A stretch of DNA of 64,000 nt from a virus. Position numbers and translations under genes: made by a program. Shown here piece by piece: positions 9,889 through 29,345 of the stretch. Location: positions 64,001 through 128,000 of the IMG/VR virus record IMGVR_UViG_3300050821_007134. One strand, 5' to 3'. Each line of letters starts with the position of its first letter. Position 1 is the first letter of the stretch. The notes under the pieces are model-generated. The model was not told the DNA's origin. It saw nothing but the letters and a program-made list of their open reading frames with translations, and made no database searches.

Positions 9889-12663
9889 TTAAGCGGCGCT
9901 CTGTACTTGCGATACGTTAATGGTAATCGGTACGAAGTAGATAGCGGTTGCAAGCTTGATTTCGACTGCAACGTCCATTTCAGGACCATTGACGCTGACT
10001 TTGGGATTTTTGAACCCGAGAGGAGCATCTGTGCTGCCTGCGATTAACTTTAATCGTTTGTATCCATCCATTTTTTGAGCTAAGAAGCTCAAAGCGGTAG
10101 CGGCGTCGACATCGGCCAAGCTCTTACCAACAAAGGATGCTTGGAAGCTTGCGGCGAGATCGAGGGCCAAAATATCCGAAGCGTACACGGCTTGGATGCT
10201 GTTATAAACGAAATTGGCGTCAAAGGCATAAGTCGTTTGGTCACTAACCCAACGAACTCCAGCGGTATCTTTGGTCCAAAATAATAGACCAGCATCGAGT
10301 GCATCTTCAACATCACCAGGGCTACCCGAGTCAAATCCTGAAGGATCAAGGTAACTGATAACGTTTGCGAATTTGTTAACGATGGCTTTATAGAAACCGC
10401 CCGTTTGCATACCGGCAGCAACAACTGCTTGGTACCAAGGGAGGAAGCTTGTGATAACGCCTTGCGAGTTAACTTGCGAAGGCCTTTGGAAAGCCAAAGA
10501 ACAACGGTACTGAGCAATCCCTTGAGATTTTTGTTTCGTCTGAGCATAAGTTCCCCAGAAAGAAAGGATTGCGATACGATTCTTTTTAAGCTTCGGTGTG
10601 CTGAATTGGATACAATGAGCCTTAGCAGCTGCATGGATTGCATCAATGGTGTAGGTCGAAGATGAATCGGTTAATCCGTCAGCGATATCAGCGCTTGCAT
10701 CTCTTGAGAAGAGAGGAACGATAATGTTAACATTCAATCCAGCCAATGCGTTGATTGCAGCGATAACTTGAGCAGCAGAAGTTCCACCTTTGGTTCCACC
10801 AGATAAGAAAATTGGAGCTGCATTTGGATTGGGTAATCCAGAAGAAGCTTGAGGTGCGAAATTCAATGCGCGAGAAGTACTCATACCTTGTTCGAAAGAG
10901 AACAGAGCATCTTTAATTCTTCCAGGCTGTTCACCAGCTCCGCTTGAAGCGATACCGGCTGCGGTAACTGCATCTAAAGCAGAAGGAGGTAATTGCTGAG
11001 CAGAAGGAGAAGCTGAAGCTGAATATCCAGATTGAGAATTGATAAAAGCAGCAATGTCGGCAACCGTTCTGTATTGGCTAAGAGCGATACTTAAGTTAGC
11101 ACCTGATCCGCCACTAACAGTAGTCGTCAACATTTGACTTACGGGATTAATTGTTAAAGTTGCGGTCGTACCTTGGTAACCAACGTTTAAGGCAATTTGA
11201 GTTGCAACGTCGATTGTTTCGCTTAAGTTAATGTCGGCGCGGTTGATTTGAACTTCAACAGAAGCCTCTTGAGCGGCAACATTTAAACTGTCAGAAAGAC
11301 CTAAAGCGGCTAAATCTCCAGGAGTAGAGTCGAACAATTCAAAACTTCTTGCATCTCCCCTTCGATAAGCGGTAGCATCTATGGCCATGGTAAGAGCAAT
11401 ACTATTTGGTGCAGCGCCAGGTGATGCAGAGATTCCAGAGGGAAGTAACAAATTGAGTTCAGTTATTAACTGAGCCTGATTTGAGTGGTTAGCTCCGTTG
11501 ATTACTCCAGGAGGGAAATTTGTGATTGAAGTTCCAGGACTCACACCAACGTTACCATTGATAATAGTACCGCTAGATGCGCTACCAGTTACGGCTGAAG
11601 CACCTAAGAGACCAAACGTCCCAGCGTAATTTAATAGAGGAGCTTGCTGTGCGTTGACGACAGTGGGTGCGCTTAATGTGACGGCTCCAGTAAGAGCAAT
11701 TAAACTGCCGTTTACAACGGTTCCTAATGTGTCAGTGATTGATGCTTGAGCGATAACGTTACCTTGGAAAGTACCAGCGAATGAAGAATCAAGAGTTGCA
11801 GAACTTCCGACGAGCCAATAAACGTTTTTGGCTAAAGCGCCACCAGTAAAGTTAATAACAGGAGTACCGCTTGAACCAGTCACTAAAGTACTTGCAGTTT
11901 TGATTACGAATACGTCAGTTGAAGAACCGCTAAAAGTAAGAGGTCCGCCTGCATCTAAGGAAGCGGCGCCCGTGCTATAATAACCAGCGGTTAATGTTTG
12001 ACCATCGAGAACAGCGGGAATTGAAACATATCCGCCATGACCAGATAAACTTGTGTAAGCGGCCTGAGCAGCTGATTGAGCTGAAGCGGCTTCGCTTGGA
12101 CTAACTGGACCAGAAGAGCTGCTACTAAGAGTGATAACATTGGCTGCTCCACCGTTTAATCGAAGTGTAAAAGAAGCGCCGTCTAAAGCTGCACCGAATG
12201 CAGGGATAGTTCCACCGGAAAGGGTAGGAGGAGCTTCGGTAGCGATCGAAGTAACTTGATATCTGTATTGGTTTCCAGGAATGCCGAAATTTTGATCAGA
12301 AAAAAGTCCATAGTTAGTGTCAACAGCGGCAGAAGCCTTTGCACTCGTATTTGTTTTTACGATGTAGATTAAATTTGCAGACCCAGTGATATCAGCATCA
12401 GCTGAAGGAGCAGATAATGCTCTCATAGCATCAACGATTGGACCGCTAAGGTATTGTTGTTGAACTTTATCCAATTGATCTGGAGTAAATGAATTGCTGC
12501 TCAAAGGATTAAGATCACTGAAAACATCTCCACCATCGGCTTCACCGATTATGACTACGTTACCAGAAGATCCGATACCAACAGGTTGGCTTTGAACAAC
12601 GATGTTAGGATACGCTCCAGGGATATTGGTATTAATGAAACTTGTTGCTAGTCTTTGAGACAT
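9889..12663 (-). CDS. contractile tail sheath protein with inserted DUF3494 ice-binding-like domain
   Basis: N-terminal PGAY...VIIGEADGG, LSGGTKG and sheath-type C-terminus; internal DUF3494 motifs (LDGQTLTAGYY, NVYWLVGSSATL, FQGNVIA). Confidence 0.85.
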   Translation of the reverse strand: MSQRLATSFINTNIPGAYPNIVVQSQPVGIGSSGNVVIIGEADGGDVFSDLNPLSSNSFTPDQLDKVQQQYLSGPIVDAMRALSAPSADADITGSANLIYIVKTNTSAKASAAVDTNYGLFSDQNFGIPGNQYRYQVTSIATEAPPTLSGGTIPAFGAALDGASFTLRLNGGAANVITLSSSSSGPVSPSEAASAQSAAQAAYTSLSGHGGYVSIPAVLDGQTLTAGYYSTGAASLDAGGPLTFSGSSTDVFVIKTASTLVTGSSGTPVINFTGGALAKNVYWLVGSSATLDSSFAGTFQGNVIAQASITDTLGTVVNGSLIALTGAVTLSAPTVVNAQQAPLLNYAGTFGLLGASAVTGSASSGTIINGNVGVSPGTSITNFPPGVINGANHSNQAQLITELNLLLPSGISASPGAAPNSIALTMAIDATAYRRGDARSFELFDSTPGDLAALGLSDSLNVAAQEASVEVQINRADINLSETIDVATQIALNVGYQGTTATLTINPVSQMLTTTVSGGSGANLSIALSQYRTVADIAAFINSQSGYSASASPSAQQLPPSALDAVTAAGIASSGAGEQPGRIKDALFSFEQGMSTSRALNFAPQASSGLPNPNAAPIFLSGGTKGGTSAAQVIAAINALAGLNVNIIVPLFSRDASADIADGLTDSSSTYTIDAIHAAAKAHCIQFSTPKLKKNRIAILSFWGTYAQTKQKSQGIAQYRCSLAFQRPSQVNSQGVITSFLPWYQAVVAAGMQTGGFYKAIVNKFANVISYLDPSGFDSGSPGDVEDALDAGLLFWTKDTAGVRWVSDQTTYAFDANFVYNSIQAVYASDILALDLAASFQASFVGKSLADVDAATALSFLAQKMDGYKRLKLIAGSTDAPLGFKNPKVSVNGPEMDVAVEIKLATAIYFVPITINVSQVQSAA

Positions 12664-12678
12664 TTTCGTTCTCCTTAA

Positions 12679-12978
12679 TTAACTTATTCTTTTAAGCCCA
12701 AAATGTTTAATTCCTTCTTCGAATCTTGCTGGGGCAGCCATAGCTACGGCTTTTAAATGAAGCCATATGATATGTTCAAGATCCTTAGAATTGGCCCATT
12801 TCGATTTCTCTTGAGCCCAGTAAAGTCTCCATGCTTCTCTAACTTGATCTTCTTTTAATGCTAGAGAGGCAGCAGGTTTGGCTAAAGAAGCGCGCCATTT
12901 TTTGGCTTCTTCTAAAGACATTTCTTTTGCTTTTTCAGCCACTTTTTCAATTTCCTGTTTCATGTTCTTCTTCGCCAT
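12679..12978 (-). CDS. hypothetical protein
   Basis: in operon upstream of sheath. Confidence 0.6.
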   Translation of the reverse strand: MAKKNMKQEIEKVAEKAKEMSLEEAKKWRASLAKPAASLALKEDQVREAWRLYWAQEKSKWANSKDLEHIIWLHLKAVAMAAPARFEEGIKHFGLKRIS

Positions 12979-12981
12979 TTC

Positions 12982-13845
12982 TTAACTCTTTTTTAAAATA
13001 TCAGATTTCTTGATTTCTAAAAATTTAGCCAGTTTGGCCACACCTGTATTTTTCCCCGCGATAGCTTCGGATTTATCCATCCAATTCTTCTCGGCCTGTG
13101 ATCTAGGTAACGTAGTACCTTCGCCTTTTGCTTCAGAATTACCTGGAGCTTGTTTTGAAACTCCCATATCATCTGACTTCTGTACGTTCGAAGGAGGAGG
13201 AGTCGCAGACGGTTGTCCAATACTTTGAGCACCCTGAGCAATTTTAGCTGGTGTGATTGCTCCGCTAGCGGCAGCATTTGCAAAGTTGGCGCCGAAGTCT
13301 TTCTTCAACTCGGCCTTTTCCATTGGTTCATGTCTATATGTGTCAGAAGCATGAACTATTTCGTGGCTGTGTAAATTCTTAATTCCAATATTTCGAGCAT
13401 GTTCGGATACTTGATTTGGTGAAGCTTCGTGGGTGTGATATCCGTGTTCTTTCATGCTGTGGTGAACTTTATCAACTAAATGCTGTCTTACGTGTTCACC
13501 GAATTTATTTTTGCTTGATTTTTCAAGCTCTTCGGACTTTCTTACTTGGCCTTCCATTCCATATTTCTTGGTATTGTAAGGTCGAGCGCCGGGGGCCGCA
13601 TTATTGCCTTCGGCATTTTCTTTTGGATTTGTTCTAGGGTCTTGTTGTTCCCTAACGCGTCTTTTTCCCACGATATCTTCTCTATCGAGTTCTTCTTGGT
13701 GTCTGTGGGGAGCCTGAGTACCTAATTTCTTAGAATTCTCAGATTCATATTTCTTCAAAGCTGGGAAATTCTTAATAAGTTCAGTGACCTTAGCTGCTAC
13801 TGCTTCGGCTGCCTGTTTTGCTGTATAACGCTTTTCTTGTGCCAT
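12982..13845 (-). CDS. putative internal head protein
   Basis: charged/low complexity, many hydrophobic-x-K-[S/A] motifs, late motif upstream. Confidence 0.5.
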   Translation of the reverse strand: MAQEKRYTAKQAAEAVAAKVTELIKNFPALKKYESENSKKLGTQAPHRHQEELDREDIVGKRRVREQQDPRTNPKENAEGNNAAPGARPYNTKKYGMEGQVRKSEELEKSSKNKFGEHVRQHLVDKVHHSMKEHGYHTHEASPNQVSEHARNIGIKNLHSHEIVHASDTYRHEPMEKAELKKDFGANFANAAASGAITPAKIAQGAQSIGQPSATPPPSNVQKSDDMGVSKQAPGNSEAKGEGTTLPRSQAEKNWMDKSEAIAGKNTGVAKLAKFLEIKKSDILKKS

Positions 13846-13879
13846 TATTGAACCTCTTTATACCACTGTAAGATTAGTA

Positions 13880-14242
13880 TTATGACTTACACTTGGCCAT
13901 AAAATCTCTTAGTTTTCGAGCACTTGCATGTTTTACGTCTTTAAAGTCCTCGGATTTAAACATTCCTGGAGACTTTGGGGTTTTCGATATAGTACTTTGC
14001 TCGCCCGATTTCATTGGATTAGCCACGGCTGTCGGAGTTGGCTTAGGTGAAAGAATTTGTGCTTCAGATTTAAAAATCTCTTGCATGAATTCTTCAGCTT
14101 TTTCAAGACCTTGTGACTTTTTCATCCTATGGAATATGAAGTTAGCCAGAGCCCATTTAGGTTCTCCGCCACTTTTACCGGCAGCTTCTTTAGCTTCCGA
14201 CCATTTCTTTTCATCTTTCGGGGTCTTTACAAATCCTGGCAT
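13880..14242 (-). CDS. putative internal head protein (N-terminus weakly ChaB-like)
   Basis: DEKKWSEAK...WAL helical hairpin; MKKS, LEKA, IFKS, MFKS motifs. Confidence 0.45.
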   Translation of the reverse strand: MPGFVKTPKDEKKWSEAKEAAGKSGGEPKWALANFIFHRMKKSQGLEKAEEFMQEIFKSEAQILSPKPTPTAVANPMKSGEQSTISKTPKSPGMFKSEDFKDVKHASARKLRDFMAKCKS

Positions 14243-14263
14243 GACTATAAGATTCCTACGATA

Positions 14264-15292
14264 TTATTCATTTTCATCTTCTGGGTCGGTGGAATCGTCG
14301 CCATTTTCATTATCTGTATACCAAATTTCATTGGCTTTATCGATAAAAGCTGGGGAATCTTCATTAGATAGGATTTTGATCCCTCCGAGGAATCCTTTGG
14401 ATGTTTTCTCTTTTAACGCAACGCTTTCAATAAATCTTCGCGGTGACTTGACCCAGCTGTTCTCTACTTGGCCAGTGATTGTGATGTATCTTCGAAAAAC
14501 TTCTTCACCTTCGACGCCGCCGTAATTGCTATCTTCCTGAAGGTCTGAACTGCTCAGAAGACTTTCCGTGAATCCGGAGGCCTCTAATAAGCTTTCTCTA
14601 TAACGCATTATACTATACATTGCGATTGACCAAAGCCAAAGTAGGTTTTGGGGATCTCCATGCGCATGACAGCCAATGGTGTAGCTTTCTTGAAAAAATG
14701 AGTGTTCAACTCTAGCCTTATATACTTGAAATTGTGGAACAATTCCGTATTTACTCGCATTGAGTTTTGTATCGGCTTCGATTAGGATACCAGCTTCAGT
14801 AATTTCCAGGATACCGTAACCGTTCCCGGTCGCAGGGTCAACAAGGATCATTCCCGGCGCAATCCCGTCGCTTCCCGGCGCATTCCCAGGGATCGCCAGT
14901 TCACCAGTTGATTGGTCATATGAAAGCGGGACGAAAGGCTTAACCACGTAGGGAATAGGCTTCCCAATAGTGTTTGGCATTAAGAGCACTGTCTCAGTGG
15001 ACTGGTCGGCCATGGTCTTCATGTCTTGTTTTTCAGGGCTATTTCCCATGGATATCGTTATGCAGGGCGTCTTATCTTTATCTTTTCTAAGTGCCATGTA
15101 AAATTCTATTTTGTTATTTGCGAACCACTCTTTACAGGCATCGATTTGTTTTTGGCCATATTTGTCTTTTAGATATGGGCTTGTGATTAAATCTTCAAAC
15201 ATGTGGTCAATAAGCCACGGATTCTTGCGCATGTCTTCGATGCCAAGCTCGATAGCTGTTTTTATTATCATGTCACCTTGAAAAATTCCCAT
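14264..15292 (-). CDS. putative tail completion/neck protein
   Basis: position upstream of sheath; size and PCITISMG pattern typical of myovirus tail terminator-like proteins. Confidence 0.5.
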   Translation of the reverse strand: MGIFQGDMIIKTAIELGIEDMRKNPWLIDHMFEDLITSPYLKDKYGQKQIDACKEWFANNKIEFYMALRKDKDKTPCITISMGNSPEKQDMKTMADQSTETVLLMPNTIGKPIPYVVKPFVPLSYDQSTGELAIPGNAPGSDGIAPGMILVDPATGNGYGILEITEAGILIEADTKLNASKYGIVPQFQVYKARVEHSFFQESYTIGCHAHGDPQNLLWLWSIAMYSIMRYRESLLEASGFTESLLSSSDLQEDSNYGGVEGEEVFRRYITITGQVENSWVKSPRRFIESVALKEKTSKGFLGGIKILSNEDSPAFIDKANEIWYTDNENGDDSTDPEDENE

Positions 15293-15298
15293 AAACCC

Positions 15299-16054
15299 TT
15301 AATATTTTGCCAAAATTTGCGGCAATACGTTTGTTTCCCATTCTTTTAAAGCCCATTCATAGGCTTTTTCAAAAAAATGTTGTGCGTCGTATCCGGGGTG
15401 AATCCACTTACCTTCACTGGCCGGGCCACTACTTACAGTTCGAAAAGTCATAATGTCTCTTTGAACTTTTCCAGTAATACGATTTTTCTTTTGATATATC
15501 GTAACTCTAGCCAAAGCATCCGTTGTTGCCCTGCTTGTAGGCGGAGCGCTTGGGATACTGAATGAATGAAGTTTTCCAAGTCTTGGATTGCCACCAGATC
15601 CCGTTTCTATTTTCTTATAAGGGATTTTTCTGGCCTTCAATTCAGTTCTAATTTGGCTGACCAAACTTTGAGCGTATGAATTCATGGTAGATGGTGCCCT
15701 ACTATGCTCAAAAGGGATGGCCCTACTTTTATTACCTGTTCTAGGATTTACAGGAGCATCTTTTAAAAGAGATTCCTTCATATCCTTTCCGGGAGTAATA
15801 CCTTCTTCAATCCAAAGTGCGCTTTCATCAATGGTCAAAAGATGAACATGTGGCGCGATTTCTTGAGTCTTAAATCCTTTTTGGAATTGACTCAGCGTGG
15901 TATGAAGTTTATCTGCGGCCATTTCATCAATTTTTGCAGTAGTCATGGCGGCCAGACCATCGACGGCTTCTAAGATGTCCTTTTCAATTTCTTCTTTTGC
16001 TTCTTTAAATGCGCCAGCAATTGCCGAAGCATCAATATGTATTTTAAAGCTCAT
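15299..16054 (-). CDS. putative neck/tail-completion protein (HK97 gp10-like)
   Basis: WIEEG...IPF...FRTVS...WIHPG...FFEKA pattern. Confidence 0.55.
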   Translation of the reverse strand: MSFKIHIDASAIAGAFKEAKEEIEKDILEAVDGLAAMTTAKIDEMAADKLHTTLSQFQKGFKTQEIAPHVHLLTIDESALWIEEGITPGKDMKESLLKDAPVNPRTGNKSRAIPFEHSRAPSTMNSYAQSLVSQIRTELKARKIPYKKIETGSGGNPRLGKLHSFSIPSAPPTSRATTDALARVTIYQKKNRITGKVQRDIMTFRTVSSGPASEGKWIHPGYDAQHFFEKAYEWALKEWETNVLPQILAKY

Positions 16055-18228
16055 TAGTTATTCTCTTGAGCCGCTGCCTTAACAGGAACTCCGCTAGGAC
16101 CCATCACTACACCCTTTTTGCGATCAATCCATCGGGTCTTCCCGGTCTTTTGATCTATCGTCTTTTGTTGACCTTTCAGGTTTATAGAACCTGGAGTCAA
16201 AGGAGTTCTTGGAGTGTGCTTGGTCGTTGCTTTAGTGGGTAATTTTCCCAGGCCACTACCGCCTGGCTTACTTTCTTTTGGGGGCTCGTTAGCTGCACCC
16301 TCCTTAGGAGCAGCCGACTTATCTTTGTCTTCTTTTTTAGGAGGAAATCCACCTTTTTCTTTTCCAGGAGGACCTTCTTTGCCTTCTTTTTTCTCAGGAG
16401 CTTTACCGTCCTTCTTTGGAGGAAAGCCACCTTTTTCTTTTCCGGGTTCTTGTCCAGCTTCTTTGGCTGGATGACTACCACAAGTAGGACAAGGATGTTC
16501 TTCTTGGCCTGGAATTGGTTCTCCGGGCTGGCCTTGAGCACCTTGTTGTTCATTTGGAAGTTGTTCAGTACCATTTGAAATACCAAGCAATTTGGACATT
16601 TCAATCATGGCGCGAAGCATTGCGATACATGAAGAATAAAGCTCAGGGGATTGAGCCTGAGATTGTTCCAAAATTTGTTTGTTATTTTTAAACCCTTGAA
16701 GAGCTTGGCCGATCATCTGTTTTATTTGCTCTTTTTGAGCATCTTCGGCGCCGCCTTCTAAACCATCCTGCATTACTGATTGCATTGGAGGCTCTTCTTC
16801 CTGACCAGGAGGAAGTTCTTCTTGCTCTTGTCCAGGAATTTGTTGGTCGGAAGCCTGATCGGTAGGAGAAGCTTGACCCATCATATCATCTTGGGTATCT
16901 CCAGCATTCGGTCCTTCAAGATTTACGCCACCTTCAGGTCCGCCAGGCATACCAGTGTCTCCGGGAACATTCTGTTCCTTGAAACCATCTGGACGACTAA
17001 CATTCCCTTCCATCTCACTACCGACGGGCATAGCGCCACTATCAATATTGTTCATCTGTTCTTGCTGAACTTGTGGATCGGCAGGGGGAGTATCAACGTT
17101 CTCTTGAATTACTTCTTCAGCTTCTTCTTGAGGCTTGCCACAAGTCGGGCAATTTTGCGCGTGAGCTTCTTGTGGAGGCGCTTGGCCATTTTCAGGAGCT
17201 TCTTTAGGAGCTTCTTTGCCTTTTTCATCTTTCACTTCCTTTTTAGGTTTTTCTTTAGTATCCATATCACCTTCTGCCTTTTTAATAGGAGTTTTGAATT
17301 CATTTTTAGAGGGATCTTTACCGGTATCTTCGGCTTTTTCCCTAGGAGTAGACATTTCTTTTCCACTCGCATGTTTATTGGCTTGACCGTCTTCTTCTTC
17401 CTTTTGTTTTTCTTTTTTCTTATCAGGAAGAGCATTAGGTTGGCCCTGTTCGCCTTTGTTTTTATCTGGAAGTGGCCTGTCTTCAGCTAAGGCAACGTCG
17501 GGTCTAGTATCGCTTTTTGGCTCTTGTTGAGCAACTTTGGCGGATGCTTCTTGATTGACTTTTGCCGTAGCTTGTTCTGGAGATTCCTGAGTTAATGCAC
17601 TATCTTGTGCAACTTGAGAAGACTTTTCTGCCGATGTTCCTGCCGGTGTTTTGGCGGATGCCTTGGCGGATGTTTCGTCACTAGCAGTCTCAGAAGGAGT
17701 CTCACCAGTTTTCTCTTTTTGAATTTGATCTTTCTGCCATGAGTCTTGTTTGAAACCTTTATCATCTTCGGGCTTTAAATATGCTTCACCAAGCTTCTGT
17801 TCTTCTTCAGATCCTTGTCCTTGTGATAATCGATCTTGTGTGGCTTGGATGTCCTTATCAACGGAATCATCGTACATGACCACTTGATTTTTACCACGAA
17901 ATTTAGCAACCATCAGAGATTTTCCAGCTTGTGGAAGATCTTGGCCTACACCAACTGACATAGTCAGATTGGTTGCGAATTCATAATCGCGTCTTAATTC
18001 TTCGATATCTTGAACAGCTTCAGCCGGTAGAGAGAATAAACCTTCGTCTCCGCCCCCGCTGATGACCTGTCCATTATGTTCTTCAACCCATTTCTTAACA
18101 ACTTCATGGCCTAAACCAATGCGACTGGAGACTTCGCTAAGCGCGCCTGGATCGTTAGCCAAAATGGCACGACCTACAAGTCTACCGGCATTATCGCCAT
18201 CGTATGCTAAGAAAATCTGGTTAGTCAC
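16054..18228 (-). CDS. mCpol (minimal CRISPR polymerase/Cas10 palm-like) domain fused to a long disordered region
   Basis: aa 1-120: YDGDNAG...GGGDEG...TMSVGVG...AKFRGKNQ; the remaining ~600 aa are Q/E/P/K-rich with two CPTCG. Confidence 0.75.
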   Translation of the reverse strand: MTNQIFLAYDGDNAGRLVGRAILANDPGALSEVSSRIGLGHEVVKKWVEEHNGQVISGGGDEGLFSLPAEAVQDIEELRRDYEFATNLTMSVGVGQDLPQAGKSLMVAKFRGKNQVVMYDDSVDKDIQATQDRLSQGQGSEEEQKLGEAYLKPEDDKGFKQDSWQKDQIQKEKTGETPSETASDETSAKASAKTPAGTSAEKSSQVAQDSALTQESPEQATAKVNQEASAKVAQQEPKSDTRPDVALAEDRPLPDKNKGEQGQPNALPDKKKEKQKEEEDGQANKHASGKEMSTPREKAEDTGKDPSKNEFKTPIKKAEGDMDTKEKPKKEVKDEKGKEAPKEAPENGQAPPQEAHAQNCPTCGKPQEEAEEVIQENVDTPPADPQVQQEQMNNIDSGAMPVGSEMEGNVSRPDGFKEQNVPGDTGMPGGPEGGVNLEGPNAGDTQDDMMGQASPTDQASDQQIPGQEQEELPPGQEEEPPMQSVMQDGLEGGAEDAQKEQIKQMIGQALQGFKNNKQILEQSQAQSPELYSSCIAMLRAMIEMSKLLGISNGTEQLPNEQQGAQGQPGEPIPGQEEHPCPTCGSHPAKEAGQEPGKEKGGFPPKKDGKAPEKKEGKEGPPGKEKGGFPPKKEDKDKSAAPKEGAANEPPKESKPGGSGLGKLPTKATTKHTPRTPLTPGSINLKGQQKTIDQKTGKTRWIDRKKGVVMGPSGVPVKAAAQENN

Positions 18229-19183
18229 GTTTTTTCCTTAAAGTATCTAGGAGCATTTCAATGTTTTCTGCATCCCAGCCTTTACCAAATCTGACTTTTA
18301 TTCCCTGTTCGGTCTTTTTAATGAAGACCTTCTTTTCTCGATCCTCACCAAGACATATGCACCCGGAAAAAATAGATCCGTCAAAAATGTGCTTACCGCA
18401 ATCCGGGCATTCAACAGTTTCGCCTTTAGCCATCTCAATTGAGAATTCATTCTTTTTACTCTTCCTAAGTTCTATGAACTTTTTTAATTTTTCGTGACCC
18501 TTTTTCATGGGCTCAACAAATTCTGGTTCTTTTCCTGTTACAACAGATTCTACGACCTTCATACCGTTAGTCATTCCTCGAAAGTATTGATCGGACTGGG
18601 GTGTAGATTCCTGTTGAATTTTGGTTATTTCTGAAACTTTGTCTGTAAGTTTCAATAGAACCAATTTATCTACAGCTTCTCTCTCCATGAGTTTCTTATC
18701 GATAACTTTACCGATTAAATCATGAAGTGCTATTCTCTCATCGACTAATTTTTGAACCTTTGCGTCAATGTCAGTGTTACCACTTGACATATTCTCTGAC
18801 AATTGGTTAACGTCATAAAGTTCGAAAGCACTCATTATGACAAGTCCCACTCCTGGTATAGCGCGATTGACAAACTGCACTATTAGTTTAGAACCTTGTC
18901 TGATTTCTCCGCTATAAACGTCTCTTTCATGTTTTTGAGCATTTAGTATAGCGCCGCCTTCCACTGGAAGGTCGAATTCTTTATTTTCACCGATGGCCAT
19001 TGGTGTTAGTTCTTTGATGACTAAAGCCATTACAGTTCTTGGAACAATTTGTAAGGCGGTCCTTAATTCTTCATGATCGACAACGGTACGAGTTCCGGGC
19101 TTATAAAGCTCGAATTTCTGCAAAGACTCCATGTAGTCCTTGCCCAAGGTCTTTTTCAAGAAGAAGTTAGCGCCTGAGGCCAT
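18221..19183 (-). CDS. putative head-associated protein with C-terminal Zn finger
   Basis: CPDC...CIC; several hydrophobic-x-K motifs. Confidence 0.55.
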   Translation of the reverse strand: MASGANFFLKKTLGKDYMESLQKFELYKPGTRTVVDHEELRTALQIVPRTVMALVIKELTPMAIGENKEFDLPVEGGAILNAQKHERDVYSGEIRQGSKLIVQFVNRAIPGVGLVIMSAFELYDVNQLSENMSSGNTDIDAKVQKLVDERIALHDLIGKVIDKKLMEREAVDKLVLLKLTDKVSEITKIQQESTPQSDQYFRGMTNGMKVVESVVTGKEPEFVEPMKKGHEKLKKFIELRKSKKNEFSIEMAKGETVECPDCGKHIFDGSIFSGCICLGEDREKKVFIKKTEQGIKVRFGKGWDAENIEMLLDTLRKKRD

Positions 19184-19192
19184 TTTATTACC

Positions 19193-19633
19193 TTATCTCG
19201 ATGCTTCGAGTGATATGGCCGTATCGTCGTCAATTAAATAAACAAGCAGTGTAGCGCTGTCAGTAATTACTGAAATTTGTTCGCCAGCTGCCACATAGGT
19301 CCAAGCATTTGGAGTACATGCAATTCCTACGTGACCCGAGGCATCTACTGCACCAGCTGCCAATGCAGCGATGGTAAGATCTTCACCAAAAGTGACAGCA
19401 TGAACGGCAGCGCTATTATTGTAGATCGCCAAATTTCTTCCAGCGGAAGGAAGTGCGCGAGCGGTAGAAGCATCAGTTGTATAAGTCGTCGCATTGATAT
19501 TTAGTGGAAGTAATTTCCTTCCAACTTCGGCAACTTTCCTAGCTCCGGCCTTTTCACTGAAAGTCATGTTCTCGACGCTGGGTACGTCTGTGACTCGATA
19601 ACCTAATACTTTTCTTTTCTTTATTCCTGCCAT
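19193..19633 (-). CDS. putative virion structural protein
   Basis: beta-rich, structural operon. Confidence 0.5.
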   Translation of the reverse strand: MAGIKKRKVLGYRVTDVPSVENMTFSEKAGARKVAEVGRKLLPLNINATTYTTDASTARALPSAGRNLAIYNNSAAVHAVTFGEDLTIAALAAGAVDASGHVGIACTPNAWTYVAAGEQISVITDSATLLVYLIDDDTAISLEASR

Positions 19634-19674
19634 AAGTCCTTAACTTTCCTTTGTTTTATACTGATTGAAGATTA

Positions 19675-20601
19675 TTATTCGCCTTCTGTAATTGTGGACA
19701 TATCCACTGGTATCACGGGGTTAGCTGGGTCAATGGATTCAGTGGGCGCTTCCACGACTCTTCCAGGTGTCTTCGATTTGAGCTGATTGACTTGGTCACC
19801 CTTATTTTGATTGTGATAGATGTATTCCCGGACGATCTCAGCGTAGTAGGGCATTCTTTCGGGACTTCTGACGCCATTAGTCGTAACATTGGTGATTCGG
19901 ATTTCTTTGGGGAGGCTGACCACATACCAAAAAGCATTGTAGAGATATCTGATTGAATATATTCGGCCTTTTCCGGTATCTGGATCAATTCCTGGATTTT
20001 TTCCGCCTTTTTCCCAGCGAATGCTGCCTTCACTTGTGAGGCAAAAATCAACACCGAGTTTGTATTCAATATTACGGCTGTCGATTAAAAACTCAATACT
20101 TACAATAGGATACATCGGAATATTGTCCGCATCAGGGGTGTAATCCATTTTATGATATGTGGCTACTTTGGTGTCTGCCTTTGGATCGGCAACATAAAGT
20201 CTATCACCAGGGGCCAAATAAATTCTATCACCATTCGACATGTCGGGGGTTCCCGGAGCATTATAGAACCTAGGCAGGACCAAACGGCCAACGGCCACGT
20301 CTACGAACCCGCCATCACTTTTCTTCTTGTCTCGTTTGTCATCTGTCATGGTGGCCGAGAAAACTCCGCCACATTTGTAAATAAAGCCGTTTGAGGTAAT
20401 TGTGTCGACTCCGTCGCTTCTGCGGTAGTCACCCTTGTCTTTTTGACCAATAGGGCTAGGAATTGCCTTGTAATGGTTGAAATCAACGGCGAAGCTTGTG
20501 ACAAAAGCATCCTGTTTGGCCAGATCTAAAGAATGCTGGACGAAGGGACTTTCGCGTTGAATATCATCGACTTGTATGCCGACGGGTTTACGATCTGACA
20601 T
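19675..20601 (-). CDS. putative neck/head-completion protein
   Basis: position between adaptor and tail genes; resembles SPO1/Twort-type structural proteins (YSIRY motif). Confidence 0.5.
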   Translation of the reverse strand: MSDRKPVGIQVDDIQRESPFVQHSLDLAKQDAFVTSFAVDFNHYKAIPSPIGQKDKGDYRRSDGVDTITSNGFIYKCGGVFSATMTDDKRDKKKSDGGFVDVAVGRLVLPRFYNAPGTPDMSNGDRIYLAPGDRLYVADPKADTKVATYHKMDYTPDADNIPMYPIVSIEFLIDSRNIEYKLGVDFCLTSEGSIRWEKGGKNPGIDPDTGKGRIYSIRYLYNAFWYVVSLPKEIRITNVTTNGVRSPERMPYYAEIVREYIYHNQNKGDQVNQLKSKTPGRVVEAPTESIDPANPVIPVDMSTITEGE

Positions 20602-20959
20602 TATTACATCCTGCTATGCTGCACATTTCGGCTATTTCTTCTAATTTCTTGTCTGTGTTAGAAAATGAATTAACCAGAGATTTTATCACTTCATTAAGTT
20701 CTAAATCTTTGGAGTACATTTTCATTTTATTTTTTACCTTTGCACCCATTATGCTACTGTTATGATTGACCTTTATATTGAATGTTCGGCTGATTCCAGT
20801 TTGGCAAAATCGTTCGATCTCATCCAAAAATTTCTCCAAGGAGGGATCGTTTGGCTCATAGTCTACTACGATCTGTTTTGAGCCCCTTATCTGTTCTTCC
20901 AGTGGCTTATTTATATCGTATTTGATTTCGTCTTCAGCTCGAATAATCTTTATACACAT
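20588..20959 (-). CDS. hypothetical protein (probable start MCIKII at 20959)
   Basis: in-frame ATG abutting the upstream stop; the longer ORF-track start overlaps the upstream gene. Confidence 0.55.
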   Translation of the reverse strand: MCIKIIRAEDEIKYDINKPLEEQIRGSKQIVVDYEPNDPSLEKFLDEIERFCQTGISRTFNIKVNHNSSIMGAKVKNKMKMYSKDLELNEVIKSLVNSFSNTDKKLEEIAEMCSIAGCNNVRS

Positions 20960-20960
20960 C

Positions 20961-21482
20961 TTATTTACCCGTAATTTTAACCTTTGACGCATTGCAAGAC
21001 ATTGCCTTCTCGGCAGTTGCCCCGGCCAGTGCCCGGCGGAATTCTTGCGGTGCAGTAACACCATCAATAACAATTGAATCTCTCTCGAAATGGCTCATTA
21101 CAGAGGCCACCTTAGCGTTATTTTTGGTAATGTGAAATTCCACCATGCTACCATTTTGGATAGAATAAATACCATGACCAGACTTCCTAAGATCCTCGCT
21201 CAACCAATGAGAATGTTCATCGACGATGGAAGAATCAGTCATTCCCTCGCTTTTCATCAAAGCTGGCTGAAAGTCTGGGTATTGTTTTCCAAGGTTGAAC
21301 TTTACAACAGCTGGATGACTCCCTGCGGCTAAAGCTTCTTCCCTGTATTTGCCTTTTGGTTTACCAATGGCAATCCAGAAACCTCCGCGAGTGCGGATCA
21401 TTTTAACTGGATGTTTGTCGAGCATACCAGCATCTTCTATATGTTCAATTTCTTTTTCAGTGAGAATTGGCTTGTCGCTCAT
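20961..21482 (-). CDS. putative internal head protein
   Basis: coupled ORF; LMKSE, LRKSG motifs. Confidence 0.5.
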   Translation of the reverse strand: MSDKPILTEKEIEHIEDAGMLDKHPVKMIRTRGGFWIAIGKPKGKYREEALAAGSHPAVVKFNLGKQYPDFQPALMKSEGMTDSSIVDEHSHWLSEDLRKSGHGIYSIQNGSMVEFHITKNNAKVASVMSHFERDSIVIDGVTAPQEFRRALAGATAEKAMSCNASKVKITGK

Positions 21483-23005
21483 TTCTTAACTCCTTGATTA
21501 TAGGCATTATTTATTTTTATTACATGCCAGTGTTTACTAATGTCTTGTTTGTCGTGTTGGGCCTTATAAGTACCGCGAATTCCTTCTAACCATGCATATC
21601 CTATTTTCTGCGGATCGTTGCCAAAATGTTTTTCAAGTCTTTTCAAATGCTGCTTAGCAATAGTGTCTTCTAGGCCTGGATTGTCTCTCATGAAGTTTTG
21701 CAATTGGGGACCGCGAAGGATAGTGGCTTTTTGATATTTGTGCTTTAGTTCTGGATGAAGGCTTATTGTTTCTCGTATGATATTTGGCGTTAAAGCATAC
21801 TTACCGTATGCTTGTTCGCCAGAATGTAATCTCTTGTGATGTGTGTTCTTGCCGCCGCTACTTTCGACAGAAGCGATAGTTCTAAGCATGTGTTCTGGAC
21901 TGTAAGTGGGAGCCTTGAATGCCGGGGCTTGCATAACCTTTGGAGCCGCGTCTACACTTTGGGGAGCGGCGGGCTGACCAATTAAAGAAGAAGCGGCGAT
22001 CATTGCGCCTGCGGCTTTAGTCTTAAAGCTTTTTTCCATGTCTTCTGTAAATTCATATATGGTATTCCCGGCGCCTTTTTCAACACTAAGGTTATCGAAA
22101 TGGACTTCATCCGGAGATAGACCCTCCTTCTTTATTTGGTCATAAAGAGGCTTGTCGATTGTAACGTGTGTGAAATATTCTTTATATTGCACTCCGTCAA
22201 TAGTGTCATAGAATTTTTTGTATTCTGGAGGGCATCCGTCAATCATGAGCATGAAATAATCGGCATCGCTATAATCAGAATGATGAATTTTGGTATGGAA
22301 TCTTAAAGCATGAGGATCTGGTTTTGTAATTCCAAGTCGTTTGACTTTGGCTTTGATATCTTCGATATCCATCTTTTGTTTTTCGTCAAAAACCTTAAGA
22401 GACATATGAAGAGGAATATCATCCGTTAAGAATTTACGACCTTTGATGGTTACTTTGAAAAGTACATCTCCGCCAGATTTTGCTTTCTTTCGATATTCAT
22501 TGCAAACACCAGTTCCGATTTTTTCTCTTTTAGCAATATCGGGCTCGATAAGTTGATTGTTAATAGTCTGTTCGGGAGATCTCTGTACTCCACTTTGACC
22601 TTCGCCTTCAGCACCAGGATTTGATCGCATATCGCGATCTCCAGTTTCAACCTTTAGTACTTTGATGCCATAGGCAGCGAGTTCTTTAGCCCATTTGTCC
22701 TGCTCTTCTTTATGGCAAACTACGTAGGCAGAATCAATAAATTCCCTACTTTTTTGAATGATGACATGATCTGGGTATTTCATTGCAAAAAGTTCAACGG
22801 CTCCAGGAGGACTGGACGATTGATCTAAAATGATTTTACAATCAGATGGAATTTCCATGACAGGATTGTAAGTATCATTGTTTATGACAGTATCTCCGGC
22901 GCTACCACTAGGAGCAGACCCCGACTCAACGATATCGCTAAGTTCTTGAATAGAATCTTCCAATGTGCGTCTCATATGTTTATGCAGCATGATGCCACTT
23001 CCCAT
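21479..23005 (-). CDS. multidomain virion protein: 2H phosphoesterase (Acb1-like) plus C-terminal lytic transglycosylase/lysozyme-like domain
   Basis: LHMSL and THVTI motifs 80 aa apart; IASVESSGG...AYGKYAL...AW..G. Confidence 0.65.
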   Translation of the reverse strand: MGSGIMLHKHMRRTLEDSIQELSDIVESGSAPSGSAGDTVINNDTYNPVMEIPSDCKIILDQSSSPPGAVELFAMKYPDHVIIQKSREFIDSAYVVCHKEEQDKWAKELAAYGIKVLKVETGDRDMRSNPGAEGEGQSGVQRSPEQTINNQLIEPDIAKREKIGTGVCNEYRKKAKSGGDVLFKVTIKGRKFLTDDIPLHMSLKVFDEKQKMDIEDIKAKVKRLGITKPDPHALRFHTKIHHSDYSDADYFMLMIDGCPPEYKKFYDTIDGVQYKEYFTHVTIDKPLYDQIKKEGLSPDEVHFDNLSVEKGAGNTIYEFTEDMEKSFKTKAAGAMIAASSLIGQPAAPQSVDAAPKVMQAPAFKAPTYSPEHMLRTIASVESSGGKNTHHKRLHSGEQAYGKYALTPNIIRETISLHPELKHKYQKATILRGPQLQNFMRDNPGLEDTIAKQHLKRLEKHFGNDPQKIGYAWLEGIRGTYKAQHDKQDISKHWHVIKINNAYNQGVKK

Positions 23006-24200
23006 GTACTATGTTTTCGGGCAGTAGACCAGCTTTTTGATCTGCGTAAACTGTCTTTTGAGGATTTTTTCTATTTTCTTCGCCATGTTTGCCAAAATTG
23101 ACGGTATTATTTTGTCCCATCGTTTCTGTGGCGAGTGCCTTTTGTGCTTCAGGAGAATACATTTGTTTGTGAGTTAAGAATGCAGAATGTTCACCCTTAG
23201 GACCAAAAGTATGTCCTTCTTTGGCATGACCAAAATAATCGTGTACTATTCTGAATACGTCATTGGCAAGTAGTGGGCTGCCTTCATGGAGAATCTTTGT
23301 AGGTGTCAATAGAGGATGATCCTTCGGAGCACTTCCTTCAGAACCAAATCCACCTTCTGTTGGGAAAAACCAGAGATGATTGTTATTATGGATATCGTGC
23401 ATTACGTCTTTTGAATTTTTATAAGGGTTGGCCATTCCCGGTTTGATCTTTGAAATCTTCAATCCACTATTCTTAATATGGTTGAACTGATCCATAGTTT
23501 CATTGATCAGGGCGCCATATGCTTTCTGAACAGCTGGGTCTCCGGGACTGTGCTTCATTCCTTCATATGAACTAGCTATTTGTTTACCGTGTTCTGGATT
23601 AACATTGACAGCTGGTGTAGGAGATAGTTTTATCCCTTTACTTTTGGCATAACTCTCCGCAACTTGTTTTACTTTATTGTCAGGTTTCAGACCAATACTA
23701 GGAGTAGGTTGAGCAGCAGATTGAATTGGTTTTTCTTCGGCCTTTTTCATATCTTCATTGAAGTTATGAGTAAATCGTCCGGCGCCACCAGGAAGAGTTG
23801 TATAAAAATCTTTTGGCTGTTGAGCATGCCAGGTAGTTCCTTGTCCCATTACTTTCTGCCCAGCTTTTTCTCCATGATGATAACGCATTTCATGTTTCTT
23901 TCCAGTAGAATAAATGGAACTCTCTTGACCCAGATTAGCGGCTAATGAATGAAGTTGTTCGGCTTGTTGGGGAGAAATTTTGTAAATGATTATTGATTTT
24001 TCTGGTTTTCCATAATGACCCATAACTTCATGGGCGTCGTACTGAGCACCCTTAAGATGTTTCAAAACAGCTGCATGATCTAGATTTAACTTGTTTTGTT
24101 CTGGGTATATTGGATTGTCAGCGGACATAAGGAAATGCGGTCCGGAAATGCTTTTCCGGTGATCTTTCATCGCATTTAATATGCCTCTATCAACGCCCAT
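22980..24200 (-). CDS. two-domain virion protein: SAM-lyase/DUF3293-like N-domain plus HDxxGH domain
   Basis: MSADNP...GHYGKPEKSII...LGQESSIY; NDVFRIVHDYFGH...GE...ETMGQN; MKKAE linker. Confidence 0.55.
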   Translation of the reverse strand: MGVDRGILNAMKDHRKSISGPHFLMSADNPIYPEQNKLNLDHAAVLKHLKGAQYDAHEVMGHYGKPEKSIIIYKISPQQAEQLHSLAANLGQESSIYSTGKKHEMRYHHGEKAGQKVMGQGTTWHAQQPKDFYTTLPGGAGRFTHNFNEDMKKAEEKPIQSAAQPTPSIGLKPDNKVKQVAESYAKSKGIKLSPTPAVNVNPEHGKQIASSYEGMKHSPGDPAVQKAYGALINETMDQFNHIKNSGLKISKIKPGMANPYKNSKDVMHDIHNNNHLWFFPTEGGFGSEGSAPKDHPLLTPTKILHEGSPLLANDVFRIVHDYFGHAKEGHTFGPKGEHSAFLTHKQMYSPEAQKALATETMGQNNTVNFGKHGEENRKNPQKTVYADQKAGLLPENIVHGKWHHAA

Positions 24201-24208
24201 TTTACACC

Positions 24209-25039
24209 TTAGAAGTTATCTATGAAATATTTTGAACTAAAGATCCCGCGAAGCTTTCTAACAAGCTCATCTCTTTGGGCCATTAATTCTTCTATTCTCA
24301 GCTGATAAATTCTAGGGCCGGGGCCACTAGAAGATTGAGAAATACCATCCTGAGACAAGCTTTGAGAAGTATGAATGAACAATGGAGCAAGCATACTCAA
24401 GATATGGATCGCAGTAATAACACCAACCAATTCGTTTACTGGAACGGGAACAAGGCCTTCTTTATTTGAAAGACCAGCCGTGTATTTAATTTGCCAGTAA
24501 GCGGGAACCCAGTTGAGTCCGTCTATGACAGTCAAAAAGGCGATACCGGCGTTACCGACAGCACCTTGGACAGAATTGACTCCATAGGCGGCCAACAGTG
24601 GAATGACGTTGATCAAATTTTTGGAAAAATTCGCAGCTTCAATCCACGTAGGGGGGATTTCGAAAATTAAATTATTGTCTGAACTTACAATTGCAAGATG
24701 TTCCAAACTTACAATTGGTCCGTGTTCCGCTCGGAGATGGATGTAAGTTTTGTACAAATTGTAATCAAATGGCAATTTTTCCTTAAAGGCTTCCCTGGTA
24801 ATTGTTCGGCCTAAAAGTAATTCAGCGTCGTTCATGGCGACCATTATATAGTCTTTCATCTCATCATCGGTAATAAAATCGCCATTTTGCATTCGAAGGG
24901 GGATTCCCTTCAACCAACGAGAAATAACCTGCTGTGGCTGCAATAGGGGCTCACAGCGCCTAAGTAGGCCAGAGGTTTGACTGGCATGTACGGGGTACAT
25001 TGCCGTTTCATATGTTTTTGTTAAGGTATAATCTCCCAT
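24209..25039 (-). CDS. putative head-tail adaptor
   Basis: YTAGL, SQSLSQDGISQS pattern; position downstream of capsid. Confidence 0.6.
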   Translation of the reverse strand: MGDYTLTKTYETAMYPVHASQTSGLLRRCEPLLQPQQVISRWLKGIPLRMQNGDFITDDEMKDYIMVAMNDAELLLGRTITREAFKEKLPFDYNLYKTYIHLRAEHGPIVSLEHLAIVSSDNNLIFEIPPTWIEAANFSKNLINVIPLLAAYGVNSVQGAVGNAGIAFLTVIDGLNWVPAYWQIKYTAGLSNKEGLVPVPVNELVGVITAIHILSMLAPLFIHTSQSLSQDGISQSSSGPGPRIYQLRIEELMAQRDELVRKLRGIFSSKYFIDNF

Positions 25040-25513
25040 TTAGCAGCTCCCGTCATTCATGGGCTCGACGGAAATCATGTTTAAAACGCTAAAACGTCTT
25101 ATATTGCTTCCCTCGAATACTGCAAACTGGACATTTCCTGAATTCGGTGTTTTACTGGGAGGAATGGTGACTTTCCAGATCGACGCGTCATTTGGATCGG
25201 CCTGTACAGCGGTTAAATTGATCACCTGAGCGTCATCTATGGACGGGAAGGTGACCTGGATGGAGGCTGGCTGATTACCGCCGCCAACGCCTACCATGTA
25301 ACGTAGACCTATTACGCTGGCCTGGGCCGGGGGAACGTTGAAAAATCCGCCAATAAGGGCTGCGCCGGAGATGTTAGCTAAAGTGACTTGATCTAGATCA
25401 ACTATTTGAAAATACAGGGTATTTGGGTCTCCAGCTCGAACCGCCCACTGAGCAGCGTAGGAAAACTGGTTTACAGTCGCGAAATTTGTGATTACTCGTG
25501 CGGAAAGTCTCAT
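25040..25513 (-). CDS. putative virion structural protein
   Basis: late motif upstream at 25549; beta-rich. Confidence 0.5.
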   Translation of the reverse strand: MRLSARVITNFATVNQFSYAAQWAVRAGDPNTLYFQIVDLDQVTLANISGAALIGGFFNVPPAQASVIGLRYMVGVGGGNQPASIQVTFPSIDDAQVINLTAVQADPNDASIWKVTIPPSKTPNSGNVQFAVFEGSNIRRFSVLNMISVEPMNDGSC

Positions 25514-25626
25514 TGCAATTTACTCCAATTTGAGGTATATCTTTCACTTAAGATTGGCACGAAAACATTTGGGAAAGCGGAATAGGCTGTTTTTCCAAGC
25601 ATTTACACATATTTAAGGAGAAAAAC

Positions 25627-26256
25627 ATGTCAGCAAAAGTCATTGAATTCGAAGGGATCGACGGCTCGGGAAAGACCACGGCCTATAACTACTTCATTCA
25701 GACATTAAGAGATCAAGGTAAGAGAGTTTTGGACACCCGAGAAGTGGGAAATCCCCATATTCCCGTCTGTGTCGCTCTAAGAAAATTAGTTCTTGATCCC
25801 TCAAGTAAAATGGATGGAATGTCCATGGAATTCGTGTTTGCTGCTATGCGTATCGAAAATCAAAGAATGTATCGCGCTGTCGAAAATGACTATGATTACA
25901 TCGTAAGCGATCGAGGTCTTCTTTCTCACTTGGCTTACACAGACCACAATGTGACTTCAGTTTTTACAGACATGTTTTATCGTGGCCTTGTGATGCAATA
26001 CACACAAAATCCTGATCAAGTCATATTTTTGGAAATTGATCCAGAAACAGCTCTTAAACGTAGAAATTTGCGAAATGGTTTTGTCGACGCCATTGAAGCA
26101 AAAGGACCTGAATTTCAACGAAAGGTTTATTCCAGTTTTACAAAATACATCCATGAATTAGCAGAAAATACCGGTCTAAGTTACACGATGATTGATGCCA
26201 ATGTTAGTATCGAAGAAGTTCAAGCTCAATTGGACAGAGTAATTTCCGAATTATAA
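25627..26256 (+). CDS. tmk: thymidylate (dTMP) kinase
   Basis: IEFEGIDGSGKTT P-loop, TRE, SDR motif, lid region. Confidence 0.9.
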   Translation: MSAKVIEFEGIDGSGKTTAYNYFIQTLRDQGKRVLDTREVGNPHIPVCVALRKLVLDPSSKMDGMSMEFVFAAMRIENQRMYRAVENDYDYIVSDRGLLSHLAYTDHNVTSVFTDMFYRGLVMQYTQNPDQVIFLEIDPETALKRRNLRNGFVDAIEAKGPEFQRKVYSSFTKYIHELAENTGLSYTMIDANVSIEEVQAQLDRVISEL

Positions 26257-26290
26257 AAATAAAAAGGCCCTAGGGCGAAACCCTAGGGCC
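26255..26290 (-). terminator. intrinsic terminator
   Basis: GGCCCTAGGG-loop-CCCTAGGGCC followed by T-tract on the minus strand, between convergent genes. Confidence 0.8.
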
Positions 26291-26338
26291 AACGAGACAG
26301 TAGACGGTTGACGAAGACCGTCTTCGGGAGGAACTTAA

Positions 26339-27307: not shown

Positions 27308-27373
27308 AAAATCTCCTTAATAGTTTTTTGCGCTTTAGATGCGCTTATACATATTAAAGATTAGTATTCGTGC

Positions 27374-27652
27374 TTAGTCAGCTTTTCGGATGATAGAAGA
27401 TAGGGTACAACCGTCGGGAGAATCGCCCTTTTTCCAGGCTCTAAAGTTCTTATAATGGTTTTTACACCAGCAATATTCGTATTCTGACAATTTTGGGGGT
27501 GAACCGTAATTTTTTCTATCTTTGAGATCCATCTCACGTAACCACTTGGTACTACTGGCGATTTCTTCTTCGGCCCATGCGCGAGGGACGGCAACATATA
27601 CAGTTCCGCATTTTTTGCAAGTTACTTGTTTGAAAGAATTCGGAAAGCCCAT
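27374..27652 (-). CDS. small Cys-rich (Zn-binding) protein
   Basis: CKKC...CWC. Confidence 0.5.
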   Translation of the reverse strand: MGFPNSFKQVTCKKCGTVYVAVPRAWAEEEIASSTKWLREMDLKDRKNYGSPPKLSEYEYCWCKNHYKNFRAWKKGDSPDGCTLSSIIRKAD

Positions 27653-29315: not shown

Positions 29316-29345
29316 ATTTTTCTCCTTGTTTCCTTATGCCTCTGT

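Follow-up and report, generated by a model that had tools for sequence, protein, structure and literature searches.

The window analysed here, a stretch of 64,000 nucleotides (nt) covering positions 64,001 to 128,000 of the IMG/VR virus record IMGVR_UViG_3300050821_007134, encodes a protein of 724 amino acids (aa), P0001, with a domain of the minimal CRISPR polymerase (mCpol) type at its N-terminus. The reading that we prefer, with a probability of about 45%, is that this protein is a virion-carried cyclic-adenylate synthase used for counter-defence. An earlier, sequence-only reading of the same DNA had proposed a phage-encoded mCpol at the start of a structural-operon protein. All the motifs that it quoted are present in the translation, and the phage origin agrees with the location of the gene in a 171,073-base virus record and with its particle-gene neighbours. 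That reading had missed that the tail of the protein is obligatory and the enzyme a passenger, that the sole cultured relative, Myxococcus phage Mx1, lacks the catalytic motifs, and that the family shows signs of being head cargo.

Identity and conservation of the mCpol domain

Residues 6-119 form an mCpol domain, as had been proposed. The Pfam model PF18182 (mCpol) matches them over its whole length (positions 1-114 of 114) with 56.9 bits (E 3e-15, cut-off 26.4). The other Pfam scores on the same domain are 30.6 bits for Cas10 palm2, a partial palm2, and 13.6 bits for GGDEF_GdpP, whose cut-off is 30, and the GGDEF diguanylate cyclase profile PF00990 is absent from the Pfam matches of the 724-aa protein. 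A sequence search of the PDB retrieves OptS (9mnr, E 1.7e-6) and a profile search retrieves KpOptS (E 2e-18). The structural model of the domain was built from a 134-sequence alignment (predicted local distance difference test score, pLDDT, 97); a single-sequence fold, with a pLDDT of 39, was discarded. Its best fold matches are the OptS/mCpol structures 9pd0, 9mnr and 9nwn (template modelling score 0.82-0.87, Z 17.7-18.5), headed by 9pd0 (0.87, Z 18.5, root-mean-square deviation 1.6, 118 aligned residues). The folds of GGDEF, adenylyl cyclase, Y-polymerase and GTP cyclohydrolase III reach a Z of at most 13.3. GGDEF and GTP cyclohydrolase III, against which the sequence-only reading had suggested checking the domain, are thus both weaker, and the best match is not to an unrelated fold. 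The Cas10 palm and the GGDEF cyclases belong to the same superfamily and share the GGD[E] hairpin, but they match less well (Z ~13 vs. 18.5), and the phage domain is shorter, with neither an HD domain nor a CRISPR context. It is a single palm of ~120 aa, without the large multi-domain, two-palm architecture of Cas10.

The same minimal palm fold, two aspartates and base-selecting serine are found in the OptS/mCpol enzymes of Panoptes (KpOptS, 9mnr and 9pd0; ECOR31 mCpol, 9nwn). In KpOptS, D6 and D57 are metal ligands needed for activity, S30 and N34 select ATP, and each active site is built from two protomers. D10 and D61 of the phage domain align with D6 and D57, which agrees with the earlier claim that the catalytic aspartates are intact. 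In contrast, the two domains are ~24% identical, and the phage domain exhibits GGDE where KpOptS has AADG and a glycine at the position of Asn34. D10 is retained in 212 of 218 domains, D61 in 216 and a serine at the position of S34 in 202, while D10, D12, D61 and K109 are jointly present in 210; the catalytic and phosphate-binding columns are the best conserved of the domain. Position 38, corresponding to Asn34 in OptS, is a glycine in the 724-aa protein, an asparagine in its three nearest relatives (P0002-P0004) and variable across the family, and G38 may loosen the choice of base. Compared with its nearest relative, the domain is 89% identical (proportions of nonsynonymous and synonymous differences 0.08 and 0.82, the synonymous sites being saturated), vs. 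65-82% for the neck genes, and the dN/dS ratio is 0.03-0.12 in ten close pairs, several of which are near saturation.

Judging from these residues, the domain is probably catalytically active. As D10, D61 and S34 are retained, its product would be an adenine-containing cyclic oligonucleotide made from ATP, most likely of the 2',3'-c-di-AMP type. The mCpols of type II Panoptes, which are paired with a CARF-TM effector, belong to the same enzyme family and are able to make cyclic triadenylate, cA3 (PMC13577387).

The domain is predicted to dimerise like OptS, in the same two-fold arrangement. The homodimer model scores 0.78 (best control 0.00; pLDDT at least 92; contact agreement between runs at least 97%), a mark attained by 20 of 30 solved homodimers and by 1 of 23 single chains, and it places S34 opposite residues 56-58, in the hairpin of the partner copy. 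As a solved OptS-like dimer exists, this result may reflect likeness to it and is not evidence of binding.

Distribution in Mx1-like phages

The mCpol gene occupies a fixed slot between the head-tail and sheath genes in about 60 Mx1-like loci and in Mx1 itself. The shared order in these ~60 loci is capsid gene, adaptor-like gene, variable enzyme slot, three to four conserved genes, a 320-aa gene, mCpol gene, neck-like gene, terminator, small genes, sheath and tube; a few outer loci deviate upstream. Complete members of this phage group measure 155-177 kb, and Mx1 is the sole cultured match among 50,697 phage records, both by the mCpol gene and by the terminator. The domain search returned 86 long homologues. 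With E 0.001 as the limit it yields 856 clusters, and nearly all of the top 150 are long. At E 1e-10 or better there are 566 protein clusters, and 143 of the best 150 exceed 200 aa. The short forms of the phage mCpol clade for which contig data are available lie on contigs of <3.3 kb and look like fragments.

As searches based on mCpol favour intact copies, the slot was surveyed with the terminator gene as bait, which made it visible in 57 loci (near-duplicate records are included in the counts). The helical domain of the tail is present in all 57. D10, D12 and D61 of mCpol are intact in 45 loci, Asp10 is replaced by Asn in nine, all from one clade, and the domain is deleted in three; 45 of the 54 mCpol domains reached via the neighbouring terminator gene are thus intact. 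The three loci without mCpol form a single lineage nested among intact relatives. One complete relative of 170.6 kb (L167:5464-10828) has no mCpol and a cargo slot stripped of all enzymes, and retains the tail gene; the N-terminus of this carrier tail is rich in CxxC repeats. The orthologue in Mx1 (WNM70340.1) occupies the same slot, with the same helical and C-terminal modules, and keeps the fold (profile E 3e-25), but its DGD, GGDE and Lys motifs are replaced, whereas they are intact in the window. Mx1 also encodes a separate GGDEF protein between its protease and capsid genes (PF00990, E 1e-9), which is possibly a functional replacement for the degenerate mCpol; the two Mx1 loci concerned are L007:3214-3945 and L007:20004-21410.

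Since the tail is universal in this survey and mCpol is lost or degenerate in places, we regard the tail as the core of the protein and mCpol as an old, usually intact and dispensable passenger. It is a long-standing gene of a large phage group and not a one-off capture. A FastTree phylogeny with just three bacterial outgroups groups the phage copies in one clade (support 0.89) and is too thin to indicate a donor or a direction. No member of the phage clade was found in the genome contigs scanned.

A different explanation is that the palm domain now mainly helps a particle protein to dimerise or supports its structure, with catalysis vestigial or incidental. The Mx1 protein, with its fold kept and its catalytic motifs replaced, would fit such a role, as would the nine survey loci with Asn at position 10 and the tandem mCpol copies with a degenerate second domain. 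We nevertheless consider it quite improbable: the catalytic and phosphate-binding columns are the best conserved, 45 of the 54 copies reached without bias are intact, and the domain is better conserved between close relatives than most neck genes. Moreover, the complete relative that lacks the domain indicates that it is unnecessary for assembly there.

Further observations concern the family. In the tandem proteins P0096 (L172:106-993) and P0123, a catalytic copy is followed by a degenerate copy, forming a Cas10-palm-like pair. Phage-like contigs of 100-172 kb with the same module (L005, L176 and L178) are found inside NCBI assemblies with GCA accessions, so some long mCpol entries labelled as cellular may be phage. 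P0023, a protein of 562 aa, is encoded on a 161-kb phage-like contig of a metagenome bin. It equals in length the "Rhabdochlamydiaceae" entry in the supplement of PMC12657218, but the assemblies differ, so it is at most a candidate for that entry.

The tail of the 724-aa protein

The tail comprises 604 aa and is largely of low complexity. It had been described from the sequence as ~600 aa of disorder with two CPTCG knuckles. The CPTCG motifs are real, at aa 360 and 580, but the disorder does not extend over the whole tail, in which aa 478-555 and aa 655-724 are conserved modules. Nor are the knuckles conserved: CPxCG is present in just 6 of 216 homologues, and some CxxC in 115. The helical domain (aa 478-555) is found in 192 of the 216 homologues, in addition to all survey loci, and matches Mx1 with E 2e-18. 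The C-terminal module (aa 655-724) is found in 59 of the 216 database homologues and in 55 of the 57 survey loci, with E 7e-16 in Mx1. Neither module belongs to a named Pfam family, and in the atlas the helical domain falls in unnamed viral clusters scoring at most 0.80. These modules are the obligatory part of the protein and probably tie it to the particle.

Signs of head cargo

The mCpol protein family shows signs, at the level of its sequences, of being protease-processed head cargo. Ten copies of a motif, [LM]xK[SAG], are found in the scaffold-like protein; the capsid protein has it at residue 8, and neighbouring enzyme proteins have it between their domains. The strict form of the motif has 22 occurrences in the head-neck module, where 4.5 would be expected, and a single one in the tail and baseplate genes (3 expected). 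It follows the mCpol domain in 56 of 202 homologues (16.5 expected); of 19 N-terminal fusions, 8 have it ahead of the domain (1.5 expected), and inside the domain it is absent (12.9 expected). An excess inside the helical domain (116 vs. 22) was set aside, as it stems mostly from one conserved helix (MLKAM). From this distribution, and by analogy with K-S capsid processing in Herelleviridae, we infer that [LM]xK[SAG] is a prohead-protease site; the literature search retrieved no paper on this cleavage motif. The motif also marks several small unassigned genes (at 12982, 13880, 18221 and 20961) within 12982-30260 (-), and it could possibly serve to list the head-internal proteins of this phage group.

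The enzymes encoded nearby point in the same direction. The neighbouring proteins carry ART-PolyVal, LPD1, GNAT, kinase and SAM-lyase-like domains; among the homologues, there are GNAT and NUDIX fusions, and P0055, P0068 and P0122 carry several enzyme domains. In the 724-aa protein, mCpol is the sole enzyme domain recognised by Pfam. This protein is encoded among virion genes beside conflict-enzyme domains, as in the pattern of the polyvalent proteins, in which GNAT, NUDIX, ART, 2H and GGDEF domains are strung on proteins beside virion genes and which were proposed to be packaged and injected (PMC5512222). It differs from them by its single enzyme domain and its fixed, vertically inherited carrier, and mCpol is unmentioned in that paper. 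Our literature search, with subscription papers mostly outside it, retrieved no Mx1 proteome paper. Based on these signs, association of the 724-aa protein with the particle is moderately probable.

Search for an effector

The absence of an adjacent effector, noted in the sequence-only reading, was confirmed: the neighbours of the mCpol gene exhibit no paired transmembrane segments (2TM) and no PADLOC match, and no effector was found in the genome scans. The genome gave no match to Cap15 (PF18153)/S-2TM-beta or to SAVED (PF18145), in scans whose built-in controls were silent and which did not include a genome-wide CARF search, nor to three proteins that flank bacterial mCpols. The Cap15 model PF18153 does match the effector beside a bacterial mCpol. 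The 724-aa protein belongs to the mCpol family without forming a Panoptes system. It is a fusion in a virus record and not a stand-alone synthase of ~120 aa in a cellular defence locus; in contrast to Panoptes, its domain is attached to a 600-aa tail and lies in a particle-assembly module, where no S-2TM-beta or CARF-TM effector was found. The CARF-TM neighbour of type II Panoptes is likewise absent from the phage locus.

Bacterial mCpols are encoded next to transmembrane effectors and nearly always work with an effector. The protein could accordingly be imagined to supply the signal for a Panoptes-like defence system or a toxin-antitoxin module carried by the phage, whose unrecognised effector lies elsewhere in the genome. 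The tightly linked 320-aa upstream gene, which has no assigned family, and five small ORFs (open reading frames) with multiple transmembrane segments elsewhere in the genome, which lie outside the family tests, would be compatible with this. Such a module is highly improbable, given that the neighbours show neither the 2TM pattern nor a PADLOC match, that Cap15, SAVED and the three bacterial flank proteins are without a match in these genome scans, and that the 320-aa gene persists where mCpol is lost or degenerate.

A 2H phosphoesterase-like neighbour

A 2H phosphoesterase-like domain lies 3.8 kb upstream of the mCpol gene, in the same module. Both of its histidines are invariant in 26 sequences. 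The LigT-like match in the PDB is weak (E 0.015), Acb1 (PF23474) stays below its cut-off, with one of the 26 members at E 0.084, and an Acb1/LigT cluster in the atlas (0.80) is a lead only. The whole protein of 508 aa has no match in the Pfam or PDB scans.

All 21 inspected records with the 2H domain have an intact mCpol, and the 2H domain is found in none of the nine with a lost or degenerate mCpol, which represent three lineages. This co-occurrence is compatible with a phosphoesterase that depends on the synthase, but is no proof of it. In its most specific form, this idea would make the virion-borne mCpol an injected anti-guard enzyme, whose "all quiet" nucleotide keeps Panoptes-type effectors shut and lets one branch carry a 2H phosphodiesterase against the cyclic oligonucleotide-based antiphage signalling system (CBASS) without tripping the guard. 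We regard this pairing as unlikely; twelve records have mCpol alone, and the sole joint loss took all cargo enzymes. In the phylogeny, 2H is restricted to a single branch, and mCpol goes back further. An origin of mCpol as a means to offset the 2H enzyme was rejected, because intact mCpol occurs in outer branches without 2H.

The 508-aa protein (21479-23005 (-)) comprises the 2H-like domain at aa 165-325, a C-terminal domain at aa 354-502 and, between the two, a MEKS motif. The C-terminal domain is lysozyme-like by eye and without a Pfam match; it is present in 34 loci, among them Mx1.

Other features of the locus

The virus record has a G+C content of 41.8% and contains one mCpol copy. The features of the locus are listed in Table 1. 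The 724-aa ORF begins with GTG, and its start overlaps the stop of the upstream gene. In distant relatives, a K-S/A/G motif follows the AYL extension; it has been lost in the 724-aa protein. The 320-aa upstream protein has no Pfam family and no transmembrane segment.

Table 1. Coordinates of the mCpol gene, its parts and its neighbours in the 64,000-nt window
Feature	Position	Strand	Remark
724-aa ORF (P0001)	16054..18228	-	mCpol, extension, acidic linker, helical domain, linker, basic C-terminal module
mCpol palm domain, aa 1-121	17866..18228	-	Pfam PF18182, fold match
Asp10 (DGD motif)	18199..18201	-	equivalent of metal-binding KpOptS Asp6, by alignment
Ser34	18127..18129	-	equivalent of adenine-selecting KpOptS Ser30, by alignment
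Asp61 (GGDE motif)	18046..18048	-	equivalent of catalytic KpOptS Asp57, by alignment
Ribosome-binding-like site AAGGA	18235..18239	-	6 nt ahead of the GTG start, from the sequence
Conserved extension, aa 122-152	17773..17865	-	AYL at its end; homologue alignment
Acidic low-complexity linker, aa 153-477	16798..17772	-	45% Q/E/P/K, net charge -30; IKKAE at aa 315, CPTCG at aa 360
Conserved helical domain, aa 478-555	16564..16797	-	homologue conservation
Second low-complexity linker	16267..16563	-	CPTCG at aa 580 (16477-16491), from the sequence
Basic C-terminal module, aa 655-724	16057..16266	-	homologue conservation
320-aa gene, C-terminal Cys cluster	18221..19183	-	nearly always directly upstream of the mCpol gene
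251-aa downstream gene (phrog_16819)	15299..16054	-	putative neck protein, from its position
Tail-terminator-like gene	14264..15292	-	PF23932, E 0.009, below cut-off
2H phosphoesterase-like domain (HMS and HVT motifs) in 508-aa protein	22031..22513	-	candidate signal-degrading partner

Several neighbouring genes show features of their own. The N-terminal domain of a 406-aa protein (23760-24200 (-)) resembles the SAM-lyase-like/DUF3293 region of Mx1 by a local profile, the Pfam score being below cut-off in Mx1; the window copy has no Pfam match. An ice-binding domain (PF11999, E 4e-54) is encoded after the capsid gene, at 26339-27307 (-). The sheath protein (9889-12663 (-)) measures 924 aa, vs. 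~716 in most relatives, and its insert resembles an ice-binding domain by eye. Elsewhere in the genome, outside the window, lies a 267-aa ORF (G000:C1:56120-56923, L011), the start of which presumably resembles a Thg1-like guanylyltransferase and would then represent a second palm-type enzyme.

A Logan contig from a soil metagenome, which may be the source sample itself, is identical over 12000-26000. In a second soil run, the neighbouring genes are covered and the mCpol gene hardly so, at 85% likeness. A promoter scan gave matches at chance level only, and no RNA holder is listed for the sequence of the locus.

Discussion

Removal of its signal is what sets off Panoptes (PMC12657218, PMC12657230, PMC13577387), so a signal made by the phage would hold it shut. 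In the explanation that we prefer, the 724-aa protein is a core protein of the particle-assembly module in Mx1-like myoviruses, and its mCpol domain would make a cyclic oligonucleotide without a trigger. The protein would probably be loaded into the head with the other enzyme cargo of the module and delivered at infection. Its product would then act on the host, where it would either hold Panoptes-type effectors shut or occupy CBASS-type receptors without activating them. We lean towards counter-defence as the purpose, and decoy or jamming nucleotides, as suggested in the sequence-only reading, appear the most likely use of the enzyme. The same logic applies to the phage CD-NTases (nucleotidyltransferases resembling cGAS and DncV), which make cyclic dinucleotides that compete for an immune receptor of the host (Ho et al. 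2023, PMID 36952342, as related in the review PMC10419184). Their fold is unrelated, being cGAS/DncV-like instead of a palm, and the review does not report them as particle-module fusions.

Several observations weigh against this explanation. The Mx1 copy is catalytically degenerate and yet kept, and one clade has Asn in place of Asp10. Panoptes has been described as relatively rare (PMC12657218), which is a poor fit with a near-universal gene aimed solely at it. Effectors of the host can also be switched on by a constitutive synthase, as shown by a cA3-making mCpol that killed cells via NucC (PMC13577387). Regarding the particle, the 724-aa protein exhibits no motif after its domain; its one loose site, at aa 315, is missing in two of four close relatives, and the post-domain site is kept in just 11 of 80 close homologues. 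The motif evidence therefore speaks for the family and not for the 724-aa protein.

The missing motif would be expected of an active counter-defence synthase that is never packaged and acts late in the cytoplasm, at the stage of assembly, in which CBASS is triggered by capsid proteins and the prohead protease. The gene is indeed coupled into the late module, its product is a largely unfolded chain without a shown packaging signal, and structural proteins and the prohead protease have been reported as CBASS triggers (PMC13728456). However, this alternative does not explain the family-wide bracketing of the domain by the motif, the obligatory tail modules or the polyvalent cargo enzymes alongside, and we consider it doubtful.

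The near-universal retention of the gene in the phage group is easier to reconcile with a general function than with a defence target of patchy occurrence. Instead of serving in immunity, an active synthase could retune the second messengers of the host (c-di-GMP, cGAMP or c-di-AMP), with effects on lysis timing or on the exclusion of later phages. Such uses were proposed for the GGDEF domains of polyvalent proteins (PMC5512222), and the degenerate mCpol of Mx1, with a GGDEF protein as its possible replacement, could be read in this way. Nevertheless, such a swap was seen in Mx1 alone, no receptor was found, and the characterised mCpols make 2',3'-linked dinucleotides or cA3, which are known as signals in immunity and not in housekeeping (PMC12657218, PMC13577387). 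A retuning role thus seems to us an improbable one.

As for earlier descriptions, the Mx1 protein appears as "mCpol+?" in Supplementary Table 3 of PMC12657218, which also contains, uncommented, a handful of metagenome-bin proteins labelled "mCpol+disordered"; viral copies are not discussed in the searched passages of the text of that paper. No discussion of phage mCpol was found in our literature search. Compared with the 295 mCpol loci counted in PMC12657230, the 566 clusters retrieved here, of which the best 150 were inspected, make the phage clade look large and suggest that a good part of the family may be absent from published accounts.

The virion-carried synthase that we propose lends itself to direct experiments, as a domain of 120 aa can easily be expressed and the rescue assays already published for OptE and for CARF-TM make the main question testable. 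Until now, mCpol has been known solely as the source of a constitutive tripwire signal of the host. The Panoptes papers describe a lose-lose dilemma for the phage, which either destroys the signals and trips the guard, or leaves them and faces CBASS. A signal made by the phage itself would, if confirmed, represent a third way out of this Panoptes/CBASS dilemma.

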